This document shows positions 2,112-51,980 of a stretch of DNA of 64,000 bases, piece after piece. The stretch's first letter is position 1. Every line of letters starts with the position of its first letter. The notes under the pieces are model-generated. The model saw only the letters and a list, made by a program, of their open reading frames with translations. It did not search any database and was not told the DNA's origin. The stretch lies in assembly GCA_000004985.1 (NCBI GenBank), contig GG738864.1; one strand, given 5' to 3'. Both the position numbers and the translations under genes were made by a program. This stretch comes from Naegleria gruberi (taxonomy: Eukaryota).

Positions 2112-4196
2112 TTACACTGATACTGAAACTTGTTGAGTTTCTTCTTCTGATTTCACAGCAGAAGTTGCTTCTGGAAGAGTTTCTTCTTTTTGAGATTTAA
2201 GTGCTTCCTTTTGTTCATGGAGTGATGGTTTGAACTTGGCAACAACCAAGTAAATGACACAAATCACTAATGAAACAACTGACATGAAGATACAAATTGT
2301 CATGAAACCAAATTCTGGTTGACCATTTTCCTTAAAACGATCAATAGCTTGAGAAAGTCCAAAGGCAATCAAAGTTGTCAAGATAATGTAACATGAGTAT
2401 AAGAAACTCATGACAGCTGCCAGCTCATTAACACCAGTCTTTTCGTTTGGTTCTTCAGACAGAGTTGATTGCAAATAAGCAACTTGAGAAATATCACCAG
2501 CAGCCCAAGAACCTGAAATTAACATCATGGCAGGAACCATACAAATAGCAAATATCAAGTTGTCATCAGTCTTTTCATTAAATGTCAAGAATGGGAAAAT
2601 CCACATCAAATTCAAAAACAAGCAATCCAAAACAATCCAAACTGTTGGAAGTTTCACCTTCTTGGCAAATATTAAGAGCATTCCAGCTCCACACAATTCA
2701 CCAAAGTTACTTCCACCCAACAGAATTCCAGAATAAGATCCCTTCTTGAGGATGTTCTTACTGTAAGCAGGGAGGAAGATATTTTCAATCAATCTATGGA
2801 GAACTTGTGGAATGACAAAGCATGGAATCAACCAAATGTAATATCTGTTGGTGAGGACTAATTTGGCACCAATGTACATGCTCTTGAAATAATTCTTGAT
2901 GACAGTTCCAATCTTTTTCAAAATTCTTAAAACTTTGTTGTTTGGTTGAGGAGTTGTTTCTTGAGCTGAGGTTGTAGGAGCAGATTCAGTTGAAGGAACA
3001 TTAACTTGTTCTTTGGTTTCAGAATCTTCAAAGATTTCAACTTCCTTCACAGTAATGAAGAAGAGGAAAATGGAAGCAGCAATGAAAAATACTGGAATGT
3101 GGAAGAGAGCAAAAATAGTTCCCATCTTTTCAATGAAAACACTTGATAAGAAGGCACCAACTGTACCTGCCAATTCATACGTTATGTGAACACCTGCATT
3201 AATTCTCTTCAGCACTGACGATTCATTATTACCTAAAATGGAAGCTGGTATAATCTTTCTCAAAACTTCCATCACACCAACGCTGAATCCAATGAAAATG
3301 TAAATAGGGAAGATAATCCAAGGAGTCCACCAACCAGCAGTGGTCAAAGTGCCACCTGTCGAAGCTTCCAAAATAATCATGACCACCACCAAAAGGGCAA
3401 AGAAAACCAAAGAAAGACAATACAATCTGGTAGCTCTAATAATTTTCAAGAGACCTTCAACAGTTGATGAAGAAATGGATTGAGCCAAACCAAATGAAAT
3501 TGTTAACAAGCTCAAAATTGTGGTAGCTCCCAAAGCATTTCCATCCAATCTATTCAAAATGGTCAACCCAATAGCTCCTGATAATGTTTCATATGAAAAT
3601 TTGAAACACATTGTACCTAGTAAGAATAATATCAGATTGGCAACTCTTCTCTTGAATCCCTTTGGCCTTTTCTTTTCAGTAGTTTGATCTTGTGTTTTGT
3701 GTGATTTGTGGTGGGTTTGATGTTGAAAATGATGAATTTGATTATCAGTGTGAACCATAGTTGGTAAAACGTTCTCGTTAAAGCAATCAAGCACATCATC
3801 AATATTATTGGCAACATTTTCTGAAGTATCCGAAACTGATGAACTCGATGTGATGGTATTAGTAGTAGTATTAGTTAATGTTACAGTGTGATTGTGATTA
3901 TGTTGGTGAATTAAATTCAATTGAGATGGAATTGTACAAAGTTTCAGATCTAAATCTGAAATATCATTTACATTGGTTTCTGGTGGAATATCTACATTTT
4001 CTGCTTCAAAAACAGCCCGTTCTTTAACTTGTTTAGATTCTGATTTGCCTAAATCAACAGCACGATGATTATCAGCAGTTGATTCTTCTGTTTGAGAATG
4101 CAAGTGAGGACTAGTCGATTCTTCAACGACAATAACTTGAATTGTTACTTCTTCTTCTTCTCTGTGTTGAGTACTATTTTCATTCGAAACAGTCAT
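2112..4196 (-). CDS. Polytopic membrane transporter, MFS-like, about 12 TM segments, with a long hydrophilic N-terminus (His/Thr-rich) and an acidic C-terminus
   Basis: 694 aa ORF with multiple hydrophobic helices (for example LILFLLGTMCF, IIFPIYIFIGFSVGV, VFFIAASIFLFFI). ATG preceded by in-frame TGA/TAG. TAA stop. Confidence 0.45.
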   Translation of the reverse strand: MTVSNENSTQHREEEEVTIQVIVVEESTSPHLHSQTEESTADNHRAVDLGKSESKQVKERAVFEAENVDIPPETNVNDISDLDLKLCTIPSQLNLIHQHNHNHTVTLTNTTTNTITSSSSVSDTSENVANNIDDVLDCFNENVLPTMVHTDNQIHHFQHQTHHKSHKTQDQTTEKKRPKGFKRRVANLILFLLGTMCFKFSYETLSGAIGLTILNRLDGNALGATTILSLLTISFGLAQSISSSTVEGLLKIIRATRLYCLSLVFFALLVVVMIILEASTGGTLTTAGWWTPWIIFPIYIFIGFSVGVMEVLRKIIPASILGNNESSVLKRINAGVHITYELAGTVGAFLSSVFIEKMGTIFALFHIPVFFIAASIFLFFITVKEVEIFEDSETKEQVNVPSTESAPTTSAQETTPQPNNKVLRILKKIGTVIKNYFKSMYIGAKLVLTNRYYIWLIPCFVIPQVLHRLIENIFLPAYSKNILKKGSYSGILLGGSNFGELCGAGMLLIFAKKVKLPTVWIVLDCLFLNLMWIFPFLTFNEKTDDNLIFAICMVPAMMLISGSWAAGDISQVAYLQSTLSEEPNEKTGVNELAAVMSFLYSCYIILTTLIAFGLSQAIDRFKENGQPEFGFMTICIFMSVVSLVICVIYLVVAKFKPSLHEQKEALKSQKEETLPEATSAVKSEEETQQVSVSV

Positions 4197-11851: not shown

Positions 11852-12843
11852 TTACTTCTTTTCAGACTTTTTCTTCAAATTGGTAATAGTTTCCTTAAGA
11901 ATCGGATCAGCATAGGCTTGAGCTTGAGCATCAGCTTCTCTGGTGATCATTTGTTCAAGACCTTGAATTTGTTGCATTCTCAAATTCTTTAAACATAATT
12001 TGGTTGCAATTGGAGGATTTCTTGCAATACGAGCTGCATAGTCCAATGCCTTTTCTCTGAGTTTATCTTCACCTTCGACAACTTCATAGACCATTCCAAT
12101 TTCGAGAGCTTTTTGAGCAGAAATCAAGTCACCAGTCAATAATAAAACACTGGCATTTTGATGACCAAGTAAATAAGGGAGGAATATGTAGAGGCCATAC
12201 CTGGTGATAAACCAATATTTACAAAGTTGACACCAAGTTTGGCACTTGTTTCAGCAAATCTGACATCTGTGGCCAAACTGATGGCCAAACCAGCACCTAC
12301 AGCATGTCCATTCAAAGCAGAAATGGTTGGAACTGGAGAGAATTTCAAAAGTGGTTCCAAGAATGAATTATAAAATTGAATCATTCTTCCAGAATTATTA
12401 TATGGTTGATCATTACAACGTTCCAATAAGAAATCAAAATCACCACCTGCACTGAAAGCAGATTTAACACCAGGAGTTTTAGATGGAGCACCTGTCAAGA
12501 CAATACATCCCAAATTCTTGTTTTTCATAATTTTATCACTTGTGAAAAGATCTCTAAATTGTTGAGCAGTTTTAACACAGAGTGCATTCATCTTTTCTGG
12601 CTTGTTAATAGTAACAATTCCGATGGTGGTTTCTTGATTGAATGGAGTGGTGAATTTTGGAGCAATTTGTGAGAGTGGAACTTCTTCAAAGACAATAAAT
12701 TGTTCTTGATCCGATGATGATGATGAACGATTCATGGACATGGTAGAGAAGGATCTTGATGAAGGCATCTTCATCATTGAAAAGCGAGAGGAAGAAGTGG
12801 CTCCAACAAGGGAGAGGACACGTCTTGAAGTGTTTTTGATCAT
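11852..12843 (-). CDS. Mitochondrial enoyl-CoA hydratase/isomerase (crotonase family), interrupted by a 1-nt frame break near 12172-12186
   Basis: N-terminal R/S-rich presequence. Upstream frame reads ...CIVLTGAPS...AGGDFDFL...ALNGHAVGAGL...NIGLSPGMASTY. Downstream frame resumes LPYLLGHQNASVLLLTGDLISAQKALEIGMV, aligning residue-for-residue with the ECHS1 segment [32 protein letters not shown]. No room for an intron; one nucleotide appears to be missing in a TCCTCCC run. Confidence 0.6.
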
Positions 12844-13143
12844 TTTTTTTGATTGGTGTGAAAAGAGGTTAAATTTTGAATGGGTGATTGATTTCTATTG
12901 GATAGTAATTTTTGTTTGTAATCTTTCAATTTATAATGTTTGAGAAATCAAATTGAGGTTGTAAAGTTCATGTTTTATTCAATTGAATCATTGAAAAACA
13001 AATGAAATCCAAAATCACTTGAAAATATATTTCCATTTTCTAATAAATATACGATTCTTTACACTAGTTTATTGAAGATTTTTACAAACCTTCCTAATTA
13101 ATATTTCAATTACCTTCCAATTCAAGGTAAATAGATAATTTAT

Positions 13144-14013
13144 TTAATCGAGGGATTGAGATGCAAAACGTCCAGTATAAACAGCTCTACCTTCAAGCTT
13201 CATAAAGACGAATTGACACAAGTGAGTGCCTGGATACAATGCAAGAGAATTAGGACTAATGGAGTGTCAAAATGCAAAATTCATTTCAATAAACTTACCT
13301 AGCATTGAAAATTTCCAAGACTTGCTTGTTGTTAATACCTGGTTGCATGAAACCAGCAGTGATGTGAATAGCAAGACCCATACGAGCGAATCTAGATCTA
13401 CCTTCCAACAAACCACAGAAACTTGGTGAAATACTGACAGTTTCTTCAGTGATGCCCAAAACAGTTTGACCTGGTTTGAGAACAAAGCATTCACCCTTTG
13501 GAACCTTAACAACCTTTGAGTATTGCTTATAGTCAACGTCATCAGTAATTGGAATAACATCTTCGGAAACTGTCATTTCTCTGAATTCATCTCCAAGAGT
13601 TCTGTATAAGCATTATAAAATTGCATCATATTCAATATTGCATTTTGTATCATCATTTTGTGGTCAATAACATTTTCATTGCATTTTGATGAAATTTTTC
13701 ATGAATTTAAAAACACAAAGATTTTAAAAAGACACCTACAAGTCATAAGAAGCAGGACCCAAGTGAGACAAGTTGAATGGAGTGATGGTAATTTGTCTAT
13801 AGAGTTGCATCATTAAAAAGGTTCATATCAAACGTTACATTGATCATCACAATGACACACAACAATACATTCAAACATGGTCATCATTCCGAGTAATAAT
13901 ATCAAACAAAAGAGTAGCAGATTTATTGTTGGCACCCTGATGTGTGTCCAACCTTCTTCAACTTACTTGGCTTGAATAGCTTTCAAAATCGAGTCGCGGG
14001 AGAGAACAGACAT
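13144..14013 (-). CDS. dcd: dCTP deaminase (Dcd/dUTPase superfamily, bacterial type) with 4 exons: 13967-14013, 13740-13796, 13299-13601, 13144-13255
   Basis: Spliced protein MSVLSRDSILKAIQAKKQITITPFNLSHLGPASYDLTLG...EGRSRFARMGLAIHITAGFMQPGINNKQVLEIFNASPNSLALYPGTHLCQFVFMKLEGRAVYTGRFASQSLD aligns along its length with E. coli Dcd (GRSSLARLGL, LPLALRPG motifs). Donors GTAAGT, GTAGGT, GTAAGT. Total 519 nt, in frame. Confidence 0.6.
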
Positions 14014-14443
14014 TTTTTTATATTAATTTATATATTAAATAATACAAATGATATTATTAGAGTATCTTTGTCTTGATTACTTTTTTGGGTGCATCAAGAA
14101 TTTTCTGCTCCATGCAACTTTCCAGGCGGCGGAATATATGTGAGGATTTATTTGACTGTGTATTACTTCATGAAATTAATATTAAACACTGTTTGGTACT
14201 ACAGATTTTACACTTGGAAGATAACGGGTAAAATTTCATACTGCTTTCATTCATCTGGGTAATGTCAATCAGCTTATTAAGGTTCTAATGGTTTCGTATT
14301 GTTACACCATCACTTGGCTGGGATAAATGGAAAAAAAAAGAGTCAACTAGTTCAATATTTGCTTTCAATTAGTTGGTTGAGCATAGTGGTATTTTAACCA
14401 TGAACCGTTCTCATTACTTTTCTAAAGTTTAAAAAATAGCAAA

Positions 14444-15877
14444 ATGAAACTTATCAATTTTCTAAGTCTTCTTGATAGCTGTTGGTGCACTGTCTTCTAA
14501 CTTGGTTTCGTCACAAGAAGTTAGGGATGTTTCTTTGAAAGTATGTTAAAAATCTCTAGATTTAGTCAATTACAAGCTTTTAAGATACACTGGCTTCTCT
14601 ATCGACCTAATTCAATTTCTTGTTTCCAAAATGACAAACGTGTCCATTGAATTTTATGAAGCTCCAGATGGTACCTTTGGTAGTCCAACTGCTGCGAATG
14701 TGAATGGAAACTGGTCAGGAACCATCGGTGAAATAATATCTGGTCGTGCTGATGTCATGATTGGCCCTTTAACAATTACTCAAAGTAGACATCAAGTCAT
14801 GGATTTTACAACAAGTTTCTTTGATGTTGGACTTTCTATTCTAACTCTTAAACAAGGAGAGGAATCTAATTTATTTTCATTCTTATTACCATTCTCGTGG
14901 GAGGTTTGGATTTTGATTTTCGTGAGTGCATTAATAGTTGCCTTGCTAACATGGGTTTTTGACCATGTTTCGCCTTATGGACATTCGAAACAATCAGACG
15001 AATCAAAGAATGAATTTGATTTTAGTGGTTCGTTAATCAATGTATGACAATATCTGGTCAAGACGGAAATCCAGGTAAAAGCTGGTCAACCAGAATCATG
15101 TTGTTAGGTTATTTCCTCTTTGTCATGATTATTCTCTCAACTTATACAGCTAATTTGGCAGCCGTCCTGACAACAAAGGTTCAATCCACAAGAGTTACTG
15201 GACTATCTGATATCAGAACCTACGGATTCAAGTTTGGTGTGGCTAAAAACTCTGCTCCTGCTTCTTACATTTCCAGCAGTGAAGACATGGCAGATATCAA
15301 AAAGAATATGGTTGTATTCGATTCCCTCGATGATTGTTTACAAGCTCTGAGAGATGGAAAGGTGGATGCTTTGATTTGGGCAAGTGCCATTCTCGAATAT
15401 ATGGCCAATCAACCACCATGTGATACTTTGGTCGTTGGTGATTTGTTTAGTCCTGGAAATTATGGTTTACCTTTTGCTAAGGGAAATTGGATGATTGGTC
15501 ATTTCACTTCGGTGTTGTTGTCGATGAGAGAAAGTGGACTTGTTGAGAAACTCAAAAGGAAGTGGTGGATTGATAAGGGAAGCTGTTCATTGGTTGAATT
15601 GACACAAACAGCAACAGGTGTAAAGATTCAAGACTTGGGAGGTATCTTTTTGATTTTGGCAGGTTTTGTAGTTGTTGGTGGTGTGGTTTTGATATTCGAA
15701 TTAGTATATAGGGCTGTATATGACAAGACAAAACACAAAACTAAACATCTGAAATATCTGAATAGATTCTTGGGAGGTGAAAAGCACCTAGTTCAACGTG
15801 AGAAAGATGTACAGGAATTGAACACCACGAATATTGCAACTCCAACACTCGAAAAAGATGGGAATATGAACCAGTAA
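14444..15877 (+). pseudogene. Minimal ionotropic glutamate receptor (S1-M1-P-M3-S2-M4, no amino-terminal domain) with several reading-frame lesions; possibly a pseudogene
   Basis: Contains YTGFSIDLIQFL, GNWSGTIGEIISGRADVMIGPLTITQSR (S1), the pore/M3 STYTANLAAVLTT (the SYTANLAAF signature), S2 and M4. The frame breaks at about 15044-15047, so the track splits it into ORFs 14631-15047 and 15044-15877. An in-frame TAA lies at about 14547-14549 within a 36-nt GTATGT...AAG segment that may be a mini-intron. The signal-peptide-like start at 14444 is in yet another frame. Confidence 0.5.
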
Positions 15878-16055: not shown

Positions 16056-16174
16056 GGCTACGGCCATATCACGATGAATGCACCTCATCCCGTCCGATTT
16101 GAGAAGTTAAGCATCGTCGAGCCACATCAGTACTGAGGTTGGAGACAACTTGGGAACCTGTGGTGCTGTAGTCT
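16056..16174 (+). rRNA. 5S ribosomal RNA, solo copy
   Basis: GGCTACGGCCATATCAC...CCCGTCCGATTTGAGAAGTTAAGC...GTACTGAGGTTGGAGACAACTTGGGAACCTGTGGTGCTGTAGTC matches the eukaryotic 5S consensus, including box A/C regions. The terminal helix pairs 5' GGCTACGG with 3' CTGTAGTC. Followed by TTTTTT. Confidence 0.8.
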
Positions 16175-16321: not shown

Positions 16322-17278
16322 TTACACCATCAAACAGCCTTTCTTTTTTTTATGTAGAGATAATACCTCTTCCAGCACTTTTTTTGGATCATCAATACGT
16401 ACTCGAAACTTTCTAACACATTCTTCCACTAATTTATCAATATTTTCATTTGTTTTTGCACTTGTTTTCAAAATTGTACAATTAGTCAATTCAAATTCTT
16501 TTACAACTTCTTGTACCATTTCCAAATTAATTTCATACCTATCAGGGAGATCACATTTGTTCATGGCAATCATACAGGGAGCATTCTTTCCCTTCCTATC
16601 TACAAATTTACTTATCAATATTTTCAATTCTTCCAAACTTTTCTGGTCTATCATTGAGCAAACAAGAATCAAAACATCGAACATGCAATTTTTCCAATAA
16701 TAATCAGTTTCTTCCTCACTACACGTATCCAAAAAGTTTACAGTTTCCTCTTCATCATCCACAGAGATTGTTCGTTTGTACGAATCATAACCGGTAGGGT
16801 CATATTCTAGGAAGAATTGCCCATATATAAATCTTGTTATGATTGAGGATTTTCCACTGCCTCCCCTTCCAATCACTAACAGCTCAATAATTGGTGTATC
16901 AAATTTTTTTCTAAATATTTTCCCTTGTTTTTCTCTTGTTCGAATCAAATGAATAAAGTAACCTAAACTTTTAACAACTCCAATCTTGGCGAATTTATCA
17001 AAAACATGCAAAGATTCCATTTCTTTTGATTCTACTGATATCGAATACTGATCAAATATCACACCAACAAAAATCCAACAAAATTCATCAATGTATTTTG
17101 CAATAAATTTCGAATAATTTGGATGAATCAATCGGAAACTTAATACATTCGGAATGGAGTTTTTTAATTGATGGAAATATTGTTCATGCAATTTTCTTTC
17201 AGCTAACTCATAAAACGGAGACAAGTATGAAATAATTTCTGTATGAATCTCTTGGGGAAGTTGAAGAAATTTGGACAT
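16322..17278 (-). CDS. F-box-like N-terminus fused to a divergent Ras-superfamily small GTPase domain
   Basis: 318 aa, ATG start, TAA stop. N-terminus LPQEIHTEIISYLSPF is F-box-like. GTPase motifs: G1 GRGGSGKSS, G4 NKCD, G5 TSAK. Switch II reads LDTCSEEE instead of DTAGQE (Gly60 and catalytic Gln61 replaced). Confidence 0.6.
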   Translation of the reverse strand: MSKFLQLPQEIHTEIISYLSPFYELAERKLHEQYFHQLKNSIPNVLSFRLIHPNYSKFIAKYIDEFCWIFVGVIFDQYSISVESKEMESLHVFDKFAKIGVVKSLGYFIHLIRTREKQGKIFRKKFDTPIIELLVIGRGGSGKSSIITRFIYGQFFLEYDPTGYDSYKRTISVDDEEETVNFLDTCSEEETDYYWKNCMFDVLILVCSMIDQKSLEELKILISKFVDRKGKNAPCMIAMNKCDLPDRYEINLEMVQEVVKEFELTNCTILKTSAKTNENIDKLVEECVRKFRVRIDDPKKVLEEVLSLHKKKKGCLMV

Positions 17279-17393: not shown

Positions 17394-17466
17394 GCCGACA
17401 TAGCTCAGTTGGGAGAGCGTAAGACTGAAGATCTTAAGGTCCCTGGTTCGATCCCTGGTGTCGGCA
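17394..17466 (+). tRNA. tRNA-Phe (anticodon GAA)
   Basis: GCCGACATAGCTCAGTTGGGAGAGCGTAAGACTGAAGATCTTAAGGTCCCTGGTTCGATCCCTGGTGTCGGCA is near-identical to metazoan tRNA-Phe. Has a 7-bp acceptor stem, D-loop AGCTCAGTTGGGAGAGC and T-loop GGTTCGATCC. Followed by a TTTTT run at about 17470-17474. Confidence 0.9.
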
Positions 17467-40416: not shown

Positions 40417-42601
40417 GTGGGAAATGTCACTTACATTTATCCTCTATGCCAAATTCAAGCCTTTGTTGCAAATAGCTCTTCATTGTGTCTGAACACATTT
40501 TCTCTGTGTTTGACATTCTTCCTCTTCTACACAGTGGTTGTTAATAATCAGTATAGGAAATTGAAATCCCTCTACTCTAAACTCATTATCATCTTTTTAG
40601 TGCTTTGTTTCCTTGTCTCTATTCCATTCTTTGTATTTATATTTCCTGTTCCAGTTCCAAACTCTTCGAGATATGCAGAGCTCTATGGAAAATCATCGAA
40701 ATTGTGGTGTGATTTTGCCAATACCCCTAATCATTATATTAATCAAACTGATGATGCATCAATGAGTAGTTTTATTAGTCAATCATCACCTAAATTGCTA
40801 ATGACATCAACAATATCAACAATGGGAGAATTTTCGAGGAAGAATGCAACAGTGGCGGATCCTGTGGAAACTTATTGGGCTATTTTCTTTGAGATTGGAT
40901 TCTTTTATGTTCCAAATACTCTAATTCTGTTTGGGTATGTTTCCTATTTCATGACATGAATTAATATTTGGAAATTATAGAAATGTTCTCTTGTTTTTAG
41001 TGATTATTGTGAAAATTAGGAGGAATTCAACAATTCTTAAGAATCACCAACAGATGTTTTCATTGATGAGGGAGTCTTCTTCCAACACCTCTATTGTAGA
41101 TGATTCAGAGGTTTCTCAATCGGTTCCTATTAAAAATCCAAAGAGAGTTGGTTCTATGGCAAATATGAGTCCATCCAATAGGAGGAACACACCATCGGTT
41201 GGCTCTCTTGGAAATAATCTTTCATTTTCTAATGAATGTATTGATGAGGACAATCAGGAGGCAATAGATGAAGGAAGGCCATTACTGAATCCAAAAAAGT
41301 TTTTCACGAGTAATTCTTCTTCTTTAAATCTACTGGCAAAGAAGGGATCTTCAAATTCATTGGTTATTCCAAAAAGTGGCCCAAAGCCAAACTCAGTCAC
41401 ACAACCTTTGGAGGCATCTCTTCCTAGTACTTTTTCCTTCTTTATGTTTGGAAGTAATATCAAATATTCCACGTTAACACAGAGAGATATTGATGAATAT
41501 ATTCAATTTTTACATTCTCAATCTAGAACAGCCTTGTATTATATTGCCGTATTGACATTTAATTGGATTGTATGGATTGTTTCAAGGTTATGTTGGGAAT
41601 TTACACAATGTCAACAATCTGAGAGTCAATCTATTATCATTTTCGTTCTTTTATCGATAGCAGAACAATGTAGTGGACCTAGAATGAGTTCCATTCTGCT
41701 ATCTATTATTTTTGGTATTAGTGAGGATACAGTTTCACCATCAACACTTTTTGACATGTTCCAAGATGTAACATGTCTCAGATATTTTACGACATATTGT
41801 TCTGAGAGAGATTCAACAGTTTCTAACAAAGAACCACAAGAAGAAAAACCATTACCTATCGAATATGATAATTTGGTTTTCTTTTGGTTTGATATTTATC
41901 AACTCAAAGAGCTAATTATGAAGGAAGAGGAGACAGAGCAAGAATTGAGAAAGAAGAAAATATCTGCAAAGGTTCAAGATATTTGTGATCTCTACTTCTC
42001 TGAAACATCACAATTTAAAATCAATTCTGACATTGTTACGAATAAGGAGAAGAACTTCTTGAGGACAACATGTATTAATTATATTAAGGGAGGTGCTCAT
42101 GACGAATCTGATGACGAATATTCAGAGAGTAGTGATGTTGAAGGAGATTCAGCCTCAACTGTATCAGGAGCTCATGAAGGAGTTCCTAAAGAAGATTTGG
42201 TTCTTCTCAACACTTTGAAACAACCTTTAAAATCATCACTTAAAATTATGAATGATTTATTATCAGAATTTAAAACTAGCCCAGCTTTTGATGAACTTAT
42301 TAATATTTTGAGAATGAAAGCTGTTTCGCAAAGAAGAAGCTTATTCAAAGACATTATCTCCAAATTGGGAAGGTTATTTATTAACTGCTTTGGAATGTGT
42401 CAAGTGTTCTTTTTGTCCAGTAGACATGAAAGTGAAGTTGAAGGATATGAAACAGTTACAGATATTGAAAATAAGCATGTAGATCATGTTGATGTACAAA
42501 TCAAGGACTTGTGGTCCAAAGAATATTCGCAAGATGTTTTCGAATTCCTCGAAAGACTAAAGAATTTGAAATTGGATAATAGAAAGATTTGGGTAATTTA
42601 G
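40417..42601 (+). CDS. Seven-transmembrane receptor fused to a C-terminal RGS-like domain (AtRGS1-type architecture); intron about 40934-41003
   Basis: Exon 1 has multiple TM helices. GGTATGT donor and TTTTAG acceptor join it to ORF 40991-42601. The C-terminal part has an RGS-like stretch (FTTYCSE...IEYDNLVFFWFDIYQLKE...AKVQDICDLYF...INSDI). TAG stop. Confidence 0.5.
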
Positions 42602-44157: not shown

Positions 44158-45650
44158 TTAAAGCTTCTTGGCAAACTCGACTTCTTCTTCGTCTTCCTTA
44201 AGGAATTCAATGAAATCTCCGAGACTCTTATCCTTGTATTCCTCAGATGTTGGATCATATTTAAATACATATTCATCTTCGGTTCCTTCCTTCAGTTTGA
44301 AAAGATCTTGATTCCACTTTTGTCCATTTTCTTCTCTCTTCTTTCTCAATCCACGTTGTTTTTCTTCAATCAAGTTCTTTTGTACGTTTGCATCTTCGAA
44401 TTCACTATCAGCTAAAGCTTTGGTGACCTTGTGCCAAACTCTACGAGATTCGTTTAATTTTTGACTGGCAACCTTCTTTACAAACCATGGAGCATGTTCG
44501 ACTTCCTTAGAATCAAAGAATAAGCTTTGTTTCTTGGTCTTGACACTACGGATTTGAACTTGACCAGTGATTGATCCATTAACCTTGTAGAGACGGTTTC
44601 CATCCTTTTTGATAGAACCCTTAATTTCATTGTCAGTACCAGATTTGAATTGAATCTTGGCAGAATAACCAGTACCTGGGCAAGAGATTTTCAAATCTTC
44701 ATTGATTTCAATACATTGAGTTCCCCATATTAATCCCTTGGCAACAACCCATGGGAAGACAATTTCATACACTTCGGTTTCTGGTTGGTTCAAGAAACGC
44801 ATTGTGATTGTACCTTCCAAGACAATTGATGCACTGTTACCATGGAATTTACTCTTAGGTTTTATCATGGCATTAACGAGGAGATTGTTTTTACGGTTCA
44901 TCAATACACAGGAAGCCATTGGGGGATGGTGAGATACTTGTTCCGCAATATATTCTGTTTTAGAAATTTCACCACTTGATGGATCCTTATGGATCCATTT
45001 ACAAGCAAAAACTTCACCAATAATTGGATTGTATGGTTTGGCTTGCATAATACCACCACGAGGTGTGTGGCTGGTATTACTCAACCACCATTTCAAAACT
45101 GAGATGAAACGTTGTTCTGGATCGAATGATTTGTGGGCACTTTAAAGAAACAAGAAACGTCATTATGTTGTATGTTTGACAGATTTAACACAAAAAGTTC
45201 AAGTGTCATTTTTCGGTTGATGATGAGTTGAAAAAGACGATTGGAGTTGAAAACAAAGTTTGTTGATAGATAAAGTAGATGATCGTGTCCAATAGATAAA
45301 GATCGTACGATTTTTTGATGAAGAAAATTAAATACTACAAAAGTTAAACTAATTACATACCTCAAGATATAATTTTGTGGTCTAACAAAGTAGGAAATAT
45401 ATTCAAGCATACTGATTGGAGCCAACAACGCGGATGGGAGAGAAATTCTGAACAAGTCTGCTCCGGTACGCAATTGTTTAACAACATCCATAATGATTGA
45501 TCCTCTGCTAATACCCTTTTCCTTCAAGGTTGATTCCTCAGCTTTAAATTGAGTTTGTCCATAATACTTTTGTTCTGTTGCGAGTTGTTCATCTGTTGGT
45601 TCGATATCCAAAATTTCGCTACCAGTTGTTGATGTTGGGGTGTCAGACAT
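44158..45650 (-). CDS. Oxysterol-binding-protein-related protein (short ORP, ligand-binding domain), 2 exons
   Basis: Exon 1 ...LEYISYFVRPQNYIL then GTATGT. Exon 2 ...KPYNPIIGEVF...EQVSHHPPMASCV (OSBP signature EQVSHHPP). TAA stop. Confidence 0.7.
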
Positions 45651-46344: not shown

Positions 46345-49300
46345 TTAAGTATCTTCCTCCTTAACAGTGTAGAGGTGAGAATGTTTGTATACATGTCTAA
46401 GTTGTTCCTTAAGGAGATTGAATGGTTTTTGATGTTGTTCAATCTCAGAGTTGTGATTCATGCATTTTTCAATTAGATTCTTGCTGATATCTTGTAAGGT
46501 ATATCCAAATGATTCTCTATATACTCTAAAGAGTTTTGGAAGGATAATTATATTATTGGATTGAGAAGTAGAGTTGTTGAAATTGTTAATAATTTTGATG
46601 TTTTGTAGGAGGAATAATTCTGTTTCCTTTCTGACAAATGATTCATAGTTTTCTGGAGTAATGTATGGGAATAAAGTACAACAATTTCTCATTCTCATAT
46701 TCTTGAATTGTTGTGAGTTTGGAAGGATAGATATTTGAGATTTTTCATTCCACAATAGCTCACCATATCTGTACATTATAAATATCAATCTCAAATCAAC
46801 ATAATTAGAGTAGAAAGAAATAAATCGTGATCTTCTATCAAAAGATTTCATACCATTCCCATTCAAAACATTGATTGGAGGAGCTAACAATTTACTAGAG
46901 CCAACAATATTTTTCTGGTCGTGAGACATATCTGTAACAATACCATTAGGATAGCTCTTGTTTCCTCTCAAAATTCCATCACGAATGTCAGAAAGTGAAA
47001 ATATCAAGCCATCAACTTGATAAGCCATTCTATTATAGAAAATGAAAGTGGCATTATTTCCCACTAGTCTATACTTGCTGCTAGATCCCATTATCAATAA
47101 AGAATGATAGAATAGTGTTAAGAATAGGTTCAAAAAGAAACATCTGAATCTAACTCGTTCATTCTTTTCTTCATGAACATCCATAAGACTAGAAAGATCA
47201 ATTCTTGATAATTCATGGCAAAGAGGAAGTAACTGAGTTAGGTAAATGTGGTTTGTACACACAATTTTTCTAGAATGTTGGGATACAGTCTTGAAGAAAG
47301 TGGCATTTCGGAAATTATACTTTTCATATTTAGGGAATATTCCTTGATACATTTGTCTTAGGTATTCCATTAATTTGTAAAGAACTGCATTAGGTTCACA
47401 CCTATATGGAATGTTTTCAATCGATTCAGGATATGAAAATACGTCACTAATAGGTAAACTCATGTTAATAACTCGGATTGGGTTATCATTACTAAATCTA
47501 TACAAATAATAGCCATCAATAAATGATAGCCCATAGTTAACATGGTGAATAATGTTGGACTCAAGGAGAAGTTGATAGAATTCAACTGCTTGCTTTCTAC
47601 TTTCCATATTAATTACAACAAATGGTTGGCTGAGATCATTATTTTGGGTGTTGTTAAAATTCAAAAGCAAATCTATCGCCTCTTTAGATTCGAAACATTT
47701 TCTGTAAATCTTTCCTTTCAATAAATTATACAATGAAGTTGAATAATTACTTTGCTTTGGGTAACGAACTCTATCCAGTAGGGTAAGGTTATTCTTCAAA
47801 TAGGCTATTACAACTTGAATGTGTGAAACTAACTGATCAATATCGTGTGCCAATGGAAAGAATTTTTTAAGCTTGTTCAATACAATAATATCGTCCTTAT
47901 AGAGAAGAACCAATGAATTGATAGCAGAAAGTGGACCATCTACAATATTATTCTTAGGCTTCTTATCATTGGATGTAACTTGCTTGTACATATTAATCTT
48001 TGAAACCTCTTTCTTATTCAGGAATGATACATCATATTGATACTTTACATATTGGCCATAAATGGTTTGGTTATGAGCTGGTACAATATAAGGGGTTATT
48101 GATTTGGATTCAAACTGATTTTCAATAAAGTATTGAGAAATATATTCATCATATTCCTGTGATCTTTGAACTGATTGATCACTAATATTCTTTTCCTCAA
48201 TTAATTGGTTATTAAATTCGGTGGTATAATTAGAATACATATCCATATCATAACTAGGAATAACATTTCTTTCTATACATTTTCTTGCTTGTAAATTATT
48301 GTAAATAGAATTAACATCTACATTATAGAAATCTCTCAATACTTCAAATGAAATATTTGGATACTCATTACTCATTTTACCTTCTAATGATCTCAAAATT
48401 TCTCCCTGAGGAAGAACAGTTGTAGAGCCATTCTCGTTGAGAGTAAGCTTCATAGAGTTCATAATACTCTTAAGGATTTTTTCATTCTCTGCCACATTAT
48501 CAGAAGGTGTTGGGATTGGTGAAGTAGGTGATTTTTCTTGTTTCTTTTCGTGTGTCTTATTCTCCATTTCTTTCACTGGAAGAACTGATTCGATTTCATC
48601 TTCAACTTCAGAGTTAATAGTCAAAGAGAGCTGATCTAGCCTTTCATCACTCAGGTCTGTTATTTGTCTTGGATTATATGTTTCATCAAAATAGAGCTGG
48701 GAGGTAACTTGATTAGATACTTCCTCTTCATCATCTGAGTCATCAGAGTAATCGTCACAAGAGTCTTCTTCATCAGTAATCATACTTAAATCCCTATCAT
48801 CGTGTAAATAAATATCACCACTTTCCAAATCCCACAAATGTACTCCAAACAATCTAATGTGGAAACTTGGTTTATAGTTACCCAAAAATATATTGATAGC
48901 ATGTTGTTTCCACTCATCTTTAAAGTTACTACTATAATATCTTTTCATATTTGTCATTAAATCAGCCAAAACACCTCCTCTATTGTGAATATCAACACTA
49001 ACTGTTCTACTTCCACTGTATTGAATAGCAATATGGTCACTAACTTGTTCATACATTTGCATTAAAATTAAAATGAATTGACCATGGTGAACAAGATGAG
49101 GTGATTCAATAATTCCCAGTGAACATAATTGTTCTCCAAGAACATATTTGGCAATAATAAATTGAGCTACACCTGTTCTATCAAGACAATCAATACAATT
49201 AGTTCTTAAAACACCAGATTGTTCCTGTATCACTTTTCCATACTTGGATGTTGTGAAAAATTTACATTGTCTTACATGATTTTCTGCAATTGCATGGAGT

Positions 49301-51090
49301 TCATTCAATGCCTTTTCAGGTTTGTCTTTAATTGCATTCCTGAAATCAAATGGAACATATTCTATATGCTTCTTTTGTTTGAATGGTTCTTCATTTTTGT
49401 AAATATTCCTGTTAAGATATTCTATGCAAATCTTGAATTTTTCTCCCAATATTATTTCTCTTGGTTTTTTCTCGTGCTGTTTCACTAGATCCAGACACAT
49501 GATTGGAGAACCTTCGTATCTTTCGAATAGGTTATTGAAATGATGCATACTATCCAGATAGAGAGGATCAAATTTTGTAATAATAATATTAGGTTTTGAG
49601 AGTAGGTTTGATGTGGATGCTTTTGTTGTGGTAGTAGTAGTATTCTTTTGATCGTTTTCATCGACAGTGGTCGTGGTAGTGGTCATTGTTGTAGTGGTAG
49701 CAGTAGATTGAGACCAATATAGAGGAATACTTCCTCTCACTTGAACAAAGCTACTAAATGCACCTTGAGATTGATTATTGAATAAATGGTGATTTGCTTC
49801 ATAAACTATTTGCTCAATTTCAACATGATTGGCCACATGACCTCCATCTGAAATACCTCGTTTAAGGTATCTAGTACCAGCATAATATCGACTTCTCCTT
49901 GCAATAACTGTCAATACAATAGATATATTACTGTTACCTGTTTTAATTTGATTTTTCTGGAGTGTTTTGTTGAATTCTTCATGTTGAGAAGGTTTCATTA
50001 ATTCCTTTGAAGAGTTTCTTTTAACTGGCACTGGTTTGGTATAATCAGCAAGAGCCATTGAAACCTTGGATTGAATAAAGTGGCCATGAATGCATGGACA
50101 CATCCATTTAGACATTTTCGTCCTCTTCAATGGTTCAAGAAGATGTGAATTCCAAACAAACATATCACATGTTGTGTTTTTTGGTTCATCTCCATAAGTC
50201 ACTATTGGTGTAGAGTTTTGTTGCAATGTTTTTGTGAGATCATAGTTATAACTAAAGTAAAAATCCTGATTCAAATTAATATTATTAAATAATTCCTTAT
50301 ACTTGTCTTCGATTAACTGTTCTTGTTTTGAAAGGTTGTCATGCATAGATAATTTCACTAATTTAGTATCTTTAATTTCATAGACACTAGCATTACCAAT
50401 CATTCCAACTTTAAGTCTATCCGTTATCAAAACCAAATAATGATGAGATTTGAGTTCAATAAACCCCAAAATGCCATAAATATTATTAGTATGGAGTTTG
50501 ATATCTTGTTGAATACTCTTCATTGCAAATTTTATCATGTGCAATAGATCATTGATTTGTTTCAAGCTATACTCTCCAGCATCTTCATTTAAATAATTGA
50601 CAATGTCACAATCAGCTCCATTGGGTCTATCAATTTTTAACATTTTATACTTTGTTTTTGATCCATTGCATCCAACAAGATAAAATCTATTATATGCCTC
50701 GTATAATGTAAAGTTGCTATACTTTTCACCAAATGTAAAATCAATTTTACTATATTCACATTCAAATGATGAATTAAATTCCTGTTGAGGAATATCGTCT
50801 CCTCCCGTCTGAATATCCGTATCAGAATTGGTTGTGATGGGCTGAAATGATGAAATTGGAGGTTGAATTGGTGATGATGGTTCCACTACTTGTTCTTCAA
50901 CATTTCTCATTCGGGATTGATCTAATATTGGCGAATCATCATTGAATTCGTAGGTTGGTGATTTTTTGGATTTTTGATCACCATAGGGTGTGTTCTTTTG
51001 TGGGCTCGTATTTGAAGATGAAGGAACGAGCAACCTTTTGATGAACATTTTTTTTGTTAAAAAATCTTTTAAAGAAGCACTTAATATCAT
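46345..51090 (-). CDS. SAC-domain phosphoinositide phosphatase with a very long C-terminal extension (1581 aa)
   Basis: RTNCIDCLDRTGVAQ (the CX5R(T/S) catalytic motif) plus upstream SAC blocks (RYLKRGISDGGHVANHVEIEQIV, VQVRGSIPLYWSQ). Single exon, ATG start, TAA stop. Confidence 0.7.
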   Translation of the reverse strand: MILSASLKDFLTKKMFIKRLLVPSSSNTSPQKNTPYGDQKSKKSPTYEFNDDSPILDQSRMRNVEEQVVEPSSPIQPPISSFQPITTNSDTDIQTGGDDIPQQEFNSSFECEYSKIDFTFGEKYSNFTLYEAYNRFYLVGCNGSKTKYKMLKIDRPNGADCDIVNYLNEDAGEYSLKQINDLLHMIKFAMKSIQQDIKLHTNNIYGILGFIELKSHHYLVLITDRLKVGMIGNASVYEIKDTKLVKLSMHDNLSKQEQLIEDKYKELFNNINLNQDFYFSYNYDLTKTLQQNSTPIVTYGDEPKNTTCDMFVWNSHLLEPLKRTKMSKWMCPCIHGHFIQSKVSMALADYTKPVPVKRNSSKELMKPSQHEEFNKTLQKNQIKTGNSNISIVLTVIARRSRYYAGTRYLKRGISDGGHVANHVEIEQIVYEANHHLFNNQSQGAFSSFVQVRGSIPLYWSQSTATTTTMTTTTTTVDENDQKNTTTTTTKASTSNLLSKPNIIITKFDPLYLDSMHHFNNLFERYEGSPIMCLDLVKQHEKKPREIILGEKFKICIEYLNRNIYKNEEPFKQKKHIEYVPFDFRNAIKDKPEKALNELHAIAENHVRQCKFFTTSKYGKVIQEQSGVLRTNCIDCLDRTGVAQFIIAKYVLGEQLCSLGIIESPHLVHHGQFILILMQMYEQVSDHIAIQYSGSRTVSVDIHNRGGVLADLMTNMKRYYSSNFKDEWKQHAINIFLGNYKPSFHIRLFGVHLWDLESGDIYLHDDRDLSMITDEEDSCDDYSDDSDDEEEVSNQVTSQLYFDETYNPRQITDLSDERLDQLSLTINSEVEDEIESVLPVKEMENKTHEKKQEKSPTSPIPTPSDNVAENEKILKSIMNSMKLTLNENGSTTVLPQGEILRSLEGKMSNEYPNISFEVLRDFYNVDVNSIYNNLQARKCIERNVIPSYDMDMYSNYTTEFNNQLIEEKNISDQSVQRSQEYDEYISQYFIENQFESKSITPYIVPAHNQTIYGQYVKYQYDVSFLNKKEVSKINMYKQVTSNDKKPKNNIVDGPLSAINSLVLLYKDDIIVLNKLKKFFPLAHDIDQLVSHIQVVIAYLKNNLTLLDRVRYPKQSNYSTSLYNLLKGKIYRKCFESKEAIDLLLNFNNTQNNDLSQPFVVINMESRKQAVEFYQLLLESNIIHHVNYGLSFIDGYYLYRFSNDNPIRVINMSLPISDVFSYPESIENIPYRCEPNAVLYKLMEYLRQMYQGIFPKYEKYNFRNATFFKTVSQHSRKIVCTNHIYLTQLLPLCHELSRIDLSSLMDVHEEKNERVRFRCFFLNLFLTLFYHSLLIMGSSSKYRLVGNNATFIFYNRMAYQVDGLIFSLSDIRDGILRGNKSYPNGIVTDMSHDQKNIVGSSKLLAPPINVLNGNGMKSFDRRSRFISFYSNYVDLRLIFIMYRYGELLWNEKSQISILPNSQQFKNMRMRNCCTLFPYITPENYESFVRKETELFLLQNIKIINNFNNSTSQSNNIIILPKLFRVYRESFGYTLQDISKNLIEKCMNHNSEIEQHQKPFNLLKEQLRHVYKHSHLYTVKEEDT

Positions 51091-51104: not shown

Positions 51105-51980
51105 TTATTTATCAGAATTTGAATCATTGGATGGTTTCCTATTCGAATACGAATATTGAAGTGCAAATTTAACACAACGTTGGAAATAATGACCTTCCCA
51201 AAAGAATTTTTTGCAAGTTGGACATTTTGTGACTGTTTGACCGTACAGATCATAAATTCGTTTTCCTCCCATAATTTTGGTCAATTCTTGAATTTCTTCT
51301 TCAGTAGTTGCTTTGATACACTGTACAGGATCGTTGCATTTCAAACATCTGGTGTAAATTTTTGCTGGATGAAACATGAGGTGGAATGATTTTACAATAT
51401 CTGAAATTGAGTCATGAAACTCAACTTTTCTTGAATCAATGAAAAGATATCGAATTTGTTTTGTTTCCTCATTATTCGAATTTTCTTCATTTTCTTCCTC
51501 GTCACTATCATAATAATCTTTCACTTTTGGTTTAGTTCCCTTGTTTTCACTCTTAATTTTTGAAGCCAAAGAAGCAGATCCAGTAACTATTATTCTATTC
51601 TCTGATCTAGCTTTATAAATAATATAATTCGTGGAATAGGATGGATCACTAATACAATCATATCCCAGTAATCTGATATGTTTGGCAATTTTTGAAATAC
51701 TTGTATCAGCAATAAATTTTGTATTTCGGAAAAAGCCATTAATTTCAGTTTGTTCTTCCTCAGTACAATCCACAAGAGGTTTATCTTGTTTTAAAACTCC
51801 CTTCGGAAATGTAAAATTCGATGTTTGTTCATTATTCTCCTTTTCCTCTTGATTCAGTACGAGAGAATTTGTTTGATTGATAATAGACATCATTTCTTCA
51901 TCCAAAAATTCATCTTCCTCTCCATTTGCTTGTTCGTCCACATTCCGAGCCTCCATCATAGGTTCATTACTTGCTAACAT
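51105..51980 (-). CDS. Mut7-C / PIN-like RNase-domain protein with C-terminal zinc ribbon
   Basis: HIRLLGYDCISDPSYSTNYIIYKARSENRIIVTGSASLASKI resembles the Mut7-C domain core. C-terminal CLKCN...CPTCKK Cys pairs. Acidic N-terminus. Confidence 0.4.
   Translation of the reverse strand: MLASNEPMMEARNVDEQANGEEDEFLDEEMMSIINQTNSLVLNQEEKENNEQTSNFTFPKGVLKQDKPLVDCTEEEQTEINGFFRNTKFIADTSISKIAKHIRLLGYDCISDPSYSTNYIIYKARSENRIIVTGSASLASKIKSENKGTKPKVKDYYDSDEEENEENSNNEETKQIRYLFIDSRKVEFHDSISDIVKSFHLMFHPAKIYTRCLKCNDPVQCIKATTEEEIQELTKIMGGKRIYDLYGQTVTKCPTCKKFFWEGHYFQRCVKFALQYSYSNRKPSNDSNSDK

Follow-up and report, generated by a model that had tools for sequence, protein, structure and literature searches.

Ionotropic glutamate receptors (iGluRs) of animals such as GluN1 and GluA2 (PDB 7yfg chain A and 4u1y chain A) are built in the order S1, M1, re-entrant pore loop, M3, S2 and M4, and an acidic residue (GluN1 D732, GluA2 E705) holds the amino group of the ligand. 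A smaller design is found in Synechocystis GluR0 and in bacterial GluR0-like receptors, which comprise S1, a pore and S2, have neither an amino-terminal domain (ATD) nor M4, and carry a potassium-channel pore. Among the insect IRs many are ATD-less and some have lost canonical glutamate-contacting residues (Croset et al., 2010; PMC2924276). The same study found no iGluRs in the unicellular eukaryotes that it examined. Our search of the accessible literature returned no publications on Naegleria iGluRs.

We analyzed a window of 64,000 nucleotides, by which we mean the whole stretch of DNA under study, from Naegleria gruberi NEG-M (contig GG738864.1). The window has about 33% G+C and is dense with long standard-code open reading frames (ORFs). 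On its plus strand, positions 14444-15877 hold a homolog of eukaryote-type iGluRs that carries disabling lesions relative to its intact homologs. Judging from sequence comparison, we consider this locus to be a recently inactivated paralog, that is, a young pseudogene or a null allele in a heterozygous diploid, and we give this reading a probability of roughly 0.65. The locus would come from a small Naegleria family of iGluR-type channels with M4 and without ATD. The ancestral gene would have encoded about 478 aa, with signal peptide, S1, M1, pore loop, M3, S2, M4 and a tail, and by homology its product would have served at the cell surface as a tetrameric ligand-gated cation channel. The receptor would then have been cut off from its start codon and signal peptide by an insertion of 1 nt, and the loss of 4 nt after M1, ahead of the pore loop, would have shifted the frame of pore, M3, S2 and M4. 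Early in S1, a TAA would be a third lesion, an ambiguous one that perhaps lies inside a 36-nt intron. Even when plausible introns are allowed, a continuous reading frame from the start codon is absent, with two frame changes unrepaired in addition to the in-frame TAA. No full-length receptor can be made from the DNA as assembled.

After conceptual repair, the protein is about 478 aa long when the 36-nt segment is counted in, which corrects the about 470 aa estimated in an earlier, sequence-only reading of the locus. It matches the Pfam families Lig_chan (2.4e-26), Lig_chan-Glu_bd (2.4e-22) and SBP_bac_3 (2.5e-12), and aligns with GluN1 residues 457-844, from S1 through M4 (E=2.7e-55), as well as with GluA2 (E=3e-48). 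The order encoded is signal peptide, S1, M1, pore loop, M3, S2 and M4, and hydropathy revealed four hydrophobic segments, namely signal peptide, M1, M3 and M4. Both Pfam and the GluN1 alignment recover a bilobed ligand-binding domain whose S1 and S2 halves are split around the channel. The S1 half, detected by Lig_chan-Glu_bd, spans 14577-14891 (LLRYTGFSIDL to FSFLLP) and is followed by the M1 helix (FSWEVWILIFVSALIVALLTWVF, 14892-14960), assigned by hydropathy and alignment to GluN1 M1. The pore loop (CMTISGQDGNPGKS) and M3 occupy 15041-15175 (Lig_chan, GluN1 alignment) and include the SYTANLAAF-type gate motif STYTANLAAVL at 15137-15169. The S2 half extends over 15176-15634 in the GluN1 alignment and keeps the cysteine pair (15407-15427 and 15575-15589): the Cys of PPCDT and the Cys of KGSCS match both GluN1 cysteines. 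The fourth helix follows S2, where LGGIFLILAGFVVVGGVVLIFELVY at 15635-15709 is hydrophobic and aligns with GluN1 M4, and the remainder up to the stop codon at 15875-15877 encodes a cytoplasmic tail. Thus, the iGluR hallmarks listed in the sequence-only reading are all present by Pfam, alignment and hydropathy.

A homology search with the repaired protein returned two entries named "predicted protein [Naegleria gruberi]", P0001 (380 aa) and P0002 (417 aa). P0001 matches the translation of the locus without any difference apart from a single internal gap and is therefore its public model, which identifies the window as nuclear DNA of N. gruberi NEG-M. P0002 is an intact paralog, 83-85% identical and encoded on another scaffold (707,703 bp). 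A second iGluR copy within the window was not found by tblastn. The approximately 20 closest cluster representatives from an exhaustive search are ATD-less proteins of 450-490 aa from metagenomes and Amoebozoa (Pelomyxa, Pyxidicula), and one metagenome scan yielded only a distant locus with 24% identity. Over the whole core, identities to P0002, P0006 from Pelomyxa schiedti, P0034 from Pyxidicula operculata, L001 (492 aa) and L003 (495 aa) range from 33 to 85%. P0002 and the amoebozoan and metagenomic relatives share the architecture of the locus, ATD-less and M4-bearing. However, their frames are continuous or interrupted by canonical introns, whereas the locus has two frameshifts and an in-frame TAA. 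The nearest named relatives that do bear an ATD are animal GluN1 and kainate-type receptors.

The lack of an ATD at the locus, already claimed from the sequence alone, was confirmed. The repaired protein has no Pfam match to ANF_receptor. Upstream of the locus the plus strand contains no ORF longer than 57 aa, and the region 12136-13576 is filled by minus-strand ORFs with ECH and dCTP-deaminase domains. Therefore, there is no room for an ATD. A search for a missing N-terminal exon farther upstream with tblastn and the family profile (12800-14720, both strands) detected nothing before 14580. In the full-length relatives used here (L001, L003 after splicing of two introns, and ten representatives of 448-592 aa) the signal peptide leads directly into S1, and the ATD is absent there too.

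The first frame change lies in the signal peptide. The start codon and first part of this peptide (MKLINFLSLL, 14444-14473) are in frame mod3=2 according to three-frame translation, and this ATG does not share its frame with the hydrophobic continuation from about 14466-14475 onward. Read onward, the ATG frame gives MKLINFLSLLDSCWCTVF and ends after 18 codons at a TAA (14498-14500). The continuation, IAVGALSSNLVSSQ, is in frame mod3=0, which is closed by a TAA at 14463-14465 just upstream and has its first ATG only at 14631. Within this frame, 14475-14540 encodes the remainder of the signal peptide and a putative first S1 beta strand (IAVGALSSNLVSSQEVRDVSLK). Deletion of one surplus base within 14466-14475, e.g. 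g14474, moves the frame from mod3=2 to mod3=0 and yields MKLINFLSLLIAVGALSSNLVSSQ, a typical signal peptide of 24 aa. The stretch 14475-14540 is colinear with the N-terminus of the relative P0005 in tblastn and is not detected by the family profile. MKLINFLSLL had been placed in a third frame by the sequence-only reading; it is indeed out of frame, but only two frames are used, and that of the ATG (14444 mod 3 = 2) is also that of the C-terminal ORF (15044 mod 3 = 2).

No upstream first exon with a consensus donor that would restore the frame was found. The only candidate is a 239-nt intron following an upstream ATG at 14170, with a weak GTAAAA donor at 14228 and an acceptor at 14466. The two ATGs, 274 nt apart on the plus strand, begin with similar codons (MKLILN, 14170-14190; MKLINF, 14444-14464), which may be chance. 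We also listed by hand single introns that would remove the 5' frame change together with the TAA. Those of 94, 100, 79 and 85 nt wreck the signal peptide and have poor donors, and a 13-nt "intron" is implausibly short.

The TAA (14547-14549) is in frame and lies within a segment of exactly 36 nt, GTATGT...ACAAG, at 14541-14576, in agreement with the sequence-only reading. The segment is ambiguous: the TAA may be a nonsense codon, and thus lesion 2, or part of a mini-intron. Its ends are splice-like and match those of real introns in the N. gruberi genome. GTATGT is the donor of two real introns of the window, at 40935-40980 (46 nt) and at 45140-45360 on the minus strand (221 nt). The latter unites two abutting ORFs into a continuous homolog of 423 aa that is OSBP-like (oxysterol-binding-protein); it ends in TAAAG, and hence AAG acceptors are used in this genome. 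Moreover, detectable homology to the family profile begins directly after the segment, at LRYTGF (14580). On the other hand, 36 nt is shorter than any intron seen, since the shortest introns in the window measure 46, 51 and 63 nt, followed by longer ones, and the shortest in a relative 44 nt, ending in TCAAG. This relative is L003, an orthologous receptor on a heterolobosean-like contig (Logan SRR15442445) with introns at 3511-3561 (51 nt) and 3940-3983 (44 nt). Both occupy positions that are intronless in the N. gruberi copy and in L001, showing that intron positions vary within the family. Reassignment of stop codons as in ciliates, or tiny introns of the ciliate or Stentor type, were rejected in view of the very long standard-code ORFs and of the organism, Naegleria.

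The spacing of conserved elements argues against an intron. With it, the distance from beta1 to the GF residues is 26 aa, without it 14 aa, and in five relatives counted by hand it is 24-28 aa. The 12 codons of the segment are colinear with the relatives, and upon their removal a strand-and-loop element with a proline motif, kept in 14/14 relatives, would have no counterpart. This motif follows beta1 as P[FY] in 13 of the 14 and as P-L-L-Y in Pelomyxa, whereas the locus lacks it in any frame. Its absence points either to an unusually divergent Naegleria N-terminus or to decay. A rescue by splicing, in which the 36-nt mini-intron, a 104-nt intron taken from the public model and possibly the 239-nt intron are removed and a variant protein is expressed, appears highly improbable to us. 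All three candidates have GT-AG ends, GTATGT donors and AAG acceptors occur in real introns of the window and of relatives, and the public model of the paralog likewise begins at an internal Met. However, the 36-nt segment conflicts with intron length and with the room needed for the proline-motif strand and loop, and the GTAAAA donor of the 239-nt candidate departs from the GTAAGT or GTATGT of confirmed introns.

The 104-nt candidate speaks against this rescue as well. The public model P0001 starts at the internal Met of ATG 14631 and passes the second frameshift by removing 14922-15025 (GTGAGT...TTTTAG), so that it reads ...WEVWILIF|WFVNQCMTISG and has M1 deleted. In the upstream frame, the removed stretch and the next few codons read VSALIVALLTWVFDHVSPYGHSKQSDESKNEFDFSGSLINV with no stop; 35 of 41 residues are identical to the M1 region of the paralog, and the stretch aligns with GluN1 M1. 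Since 14922-15025 is conserved coding sequence, in the paralog and in all iGluRs, the "intron" is an annotation artefact and the "WF" that P0001 gains by switching frame is coincidental. The iGluR topology is not possible without M1, and the spliced product would thus lack the topology of a channel. P0001 is a mis-model and unsuited to iGluR phylogenies or structure work. For curation, we recommend labeling the locus a probable pseudogene.

The internal start of both public models also bears on the age of the 5' lesions. As the model of the paralog P0002 also begins at this Met, the 5' end of that gene may be interrupted alike. In that case, some of the apparent 5' "damage" could reflect a structure common to both genes, for instance an intron, rather than decay. 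In a related scenario, the paralog has the same 5' damage from long ago, both copies make a truncated protein from the internal Met (14631), and only the 4-nt deletion is recent. The equivalent Met at the start of both models fits this scenario, as do the well conserved downstream body and the failure of the family profile to find a counterpart of beta1, proline motif and beta2 in 12800-14579. Yet, a protein starting at 14631 would lack the signal peptide and two core strands of lobe 1, and the model start could merely reflect the annotation pipeline. Furthermore, a near-perfect signal peptide and a beta1-like strand, colinear with relatives, are still found upstream, which is unexpected after long neutral decay. 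We therefore regard old, shared 5' damage as improbable.

The second frame change separates M1 from the pore loop. tblastn with P0002, L001 and P0006 places the switch from mod3=0 to mod3=2 at 15032-15041. Between AAT (15039-15041, Asn) and ATG (15044-15046, Met) only GT remains (15042-15043), and 4 nt are missing. At this position the paralog P0002 has SLINACMTISG (N-A-C-M-T), and L001, L003 and P0005 likewise have three residues between Asn and Thr/Val. Compared to the paralog, at most about one residue is lost. An ancestral AATGTATGTATGACA (N-V-C-M-T) that lost one GTAT unit by slippage would give AATGTATGACA, exactly as seen at the locus. We infer that the loss of 4 nt carries the signature of replication slippage and not of a base-calling error. 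The sequence-only reading had described a -1 shift at about 15044; its site is supported by tblastn, and the change is better described as 4 missing nucleotides. No intron was found that would restore the frame here without deleting conserved residues. Programmed frameshifting and nuclear mRNA editing were rejected as well, because neither site shows a known slippery or stop-associated motif and neither process is known from Naegleria nuclear genes.

The sequence-only reading had named a decaying gene and assembly indels as the alternatives; these were the right ones, and the evidence favors decay without proving it. From 14631 onward, conservation equals that of the intact paralog and all family-invariant residues are kept (29/29). 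Substitutions show no significant excess at the locus: with L001 as outgroup it has 18 unique substitutions and the paralog 12 (p=0.36), at sites where L001 and L003 agree, in the larger outgroup set, it has 7 changes compared to 4, and at sites of a six-sequence alignment where the other copy and all outgroups agree, it has 1 unique change and the paralog 2. The gene body was therefore constrained until recently, and the lesions, if real, are young. Constraint of this kind fits a young pseudogene and a sequence error alike.

All three lesions lie within 600 nt, roughly the length of one capillary-sequencing read. Together with the unbroken conservation downstream, this would be compatible with a gene that is intact in the organism and was damaged only in the consensus, in a stretch where the draft assembly is poor owing to low coverage or to a mosaic of indels from two haplotypes. 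Several observations speak against such errors. Uninterrupted ORFs of at least 300 aa cover about 35 kb of the window, two of them reaching 1758 and 1581 aa, and canonical introns join the remaining abutting ORF pairs that we examined. Hence, a generally raised rate of indel errors cannot account for two such changes within 600 nt. Between the lesions, 410 nt can be translated without a break, with 85% identity to the paralog. Finally, a 4-nt deletion and a substitution creating a TAA are not typical single-base miscalls. For these reasons real lesions are favored, and a local sequencing error is the less likely explanation; we rate it as unlikely. Naegleria is reportedly a heterozygous diploid (PMC9928731, with reference to the genome paper). 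An intact second allele may thus exist, with the lesions in one allele only.

Downstream of the receptor locus, a complete 5S rRNA gene (16056-16174, plus strand, 105 bits) begins about 180 nt past the receptor stop codon, and a tRNA-Phe(GAA) gene (17394-17466, plus strand) is located 1.2 kb beyond it; both are dispersed among protein-coding genes. Between them, an intronless ORF of 318 aa on the minus strand (16322-17278) has a Ras-family GTPase domain at residues 133-291, and its N-terminal stretch LPQEIHTEIISYL looks F-box-like by eye. Farther along the window, a minus-strand ORF of 291 aa with a Mut7-C RNase domain (51105-51980) ends 14 nt before the ATG of the 1581-aa ORF on the same strand (46345-51090), which has SacI, DEP and DUF547 domains. 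This pair reflects either an extremely short intergenic spacer or one joined gene.

It is the intact paralog, and not the broken copy, that would be informative in experiments. The ligand-contact residues of the locus can be read from the GluN1 alignment. In S1, the ligand-contacting Thr and Arg are present and aligned with GluN1 T518 and R523 (GPLTITQSR, 14763-14789, vs APLTINNER). In S2, Ala occupies the acidic position of GluN1 D732 (IWASAILEY, 15374-15400, vs FIWDSAVLEF). In the Naegleria-like subgroup (P0002, L001, L003/P0004), the residue matching GluN1 D732 / GluA2 E705 is Ala, Val or Thr, and several more distant ATD-less relatives keep Asp. Based on these residues, the ligand of the Naegleria-like subgroup may not be a standard amino acid. 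Tentatively, and with low confidence, we propose a protist clade of iGluRs with M4, an animal-like pore and no ATD, made up of the Naegleria proteins and of their relatives from Amoebozoa and metagenomes. Its Naegleria subgroup would have lost the acidic contact, and the ligand of this subgroup would be something other than a standard amino acid.

The locus, its intact paralog and the about 20 related clusters place M4-bearing, ATD-less iGluRs in Heterolobosea and Amoebozoa, a finding with bearing on the timing of M4 and ATD acquisition. The sequence-only reading had held that such a minimal receptor would be notable if intact. This claim is not supported, as the intact paralog is already public as a predicted protein and the ATD-less relative clusters exist. 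If the locus (or its other allele) and the paralog were functional, one could use them as a simple system to ask what a eukaryotic receptor sensed before the ATD, and their existence would contradict the earlier view of iGluRs as absent from unicellular eukaryotes (PMC2924276).

Compared to the known systems, the locus resembles Synechocystis GluR0 and the bacterial GluR0-like receptors in being small and ATD-less, with S1, pore and S2. In contrast to them, it has M4 and a eukaryote-type pore loop, from which the TXVGYG potassium-channel filter is absent. The bacterial-type matches P0018, P0019, P0021 and P0023 carry Pfam Ion_trans_2, and three of the four also Ion_trans. The repaired protein scores far better with animal receptors of the GluN1/GluA2 type (1e-55 to 1e-47) than with bacterial-type receptors (1e-24 and weaker). 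The term GluR0-like, suggested by the sequence-only reading, is therefore not appropriate. With metazoan GluN1 and GluA2 the locus shares the order of domains, the SYTANLAAF-type M3, both S2 cysteines and the ligand-contacting Thr and Arg of S1. Unlike them, it has no ATD, its reading frame is broken, its source is a unicellular heterolobosean, and the acidic residue that holds the amino group is replaced by Ala. Insect IRs are a protostome-specific offshoot of the animal iGluRs, and their likeness to the Naegleria clade is one of architecture only.
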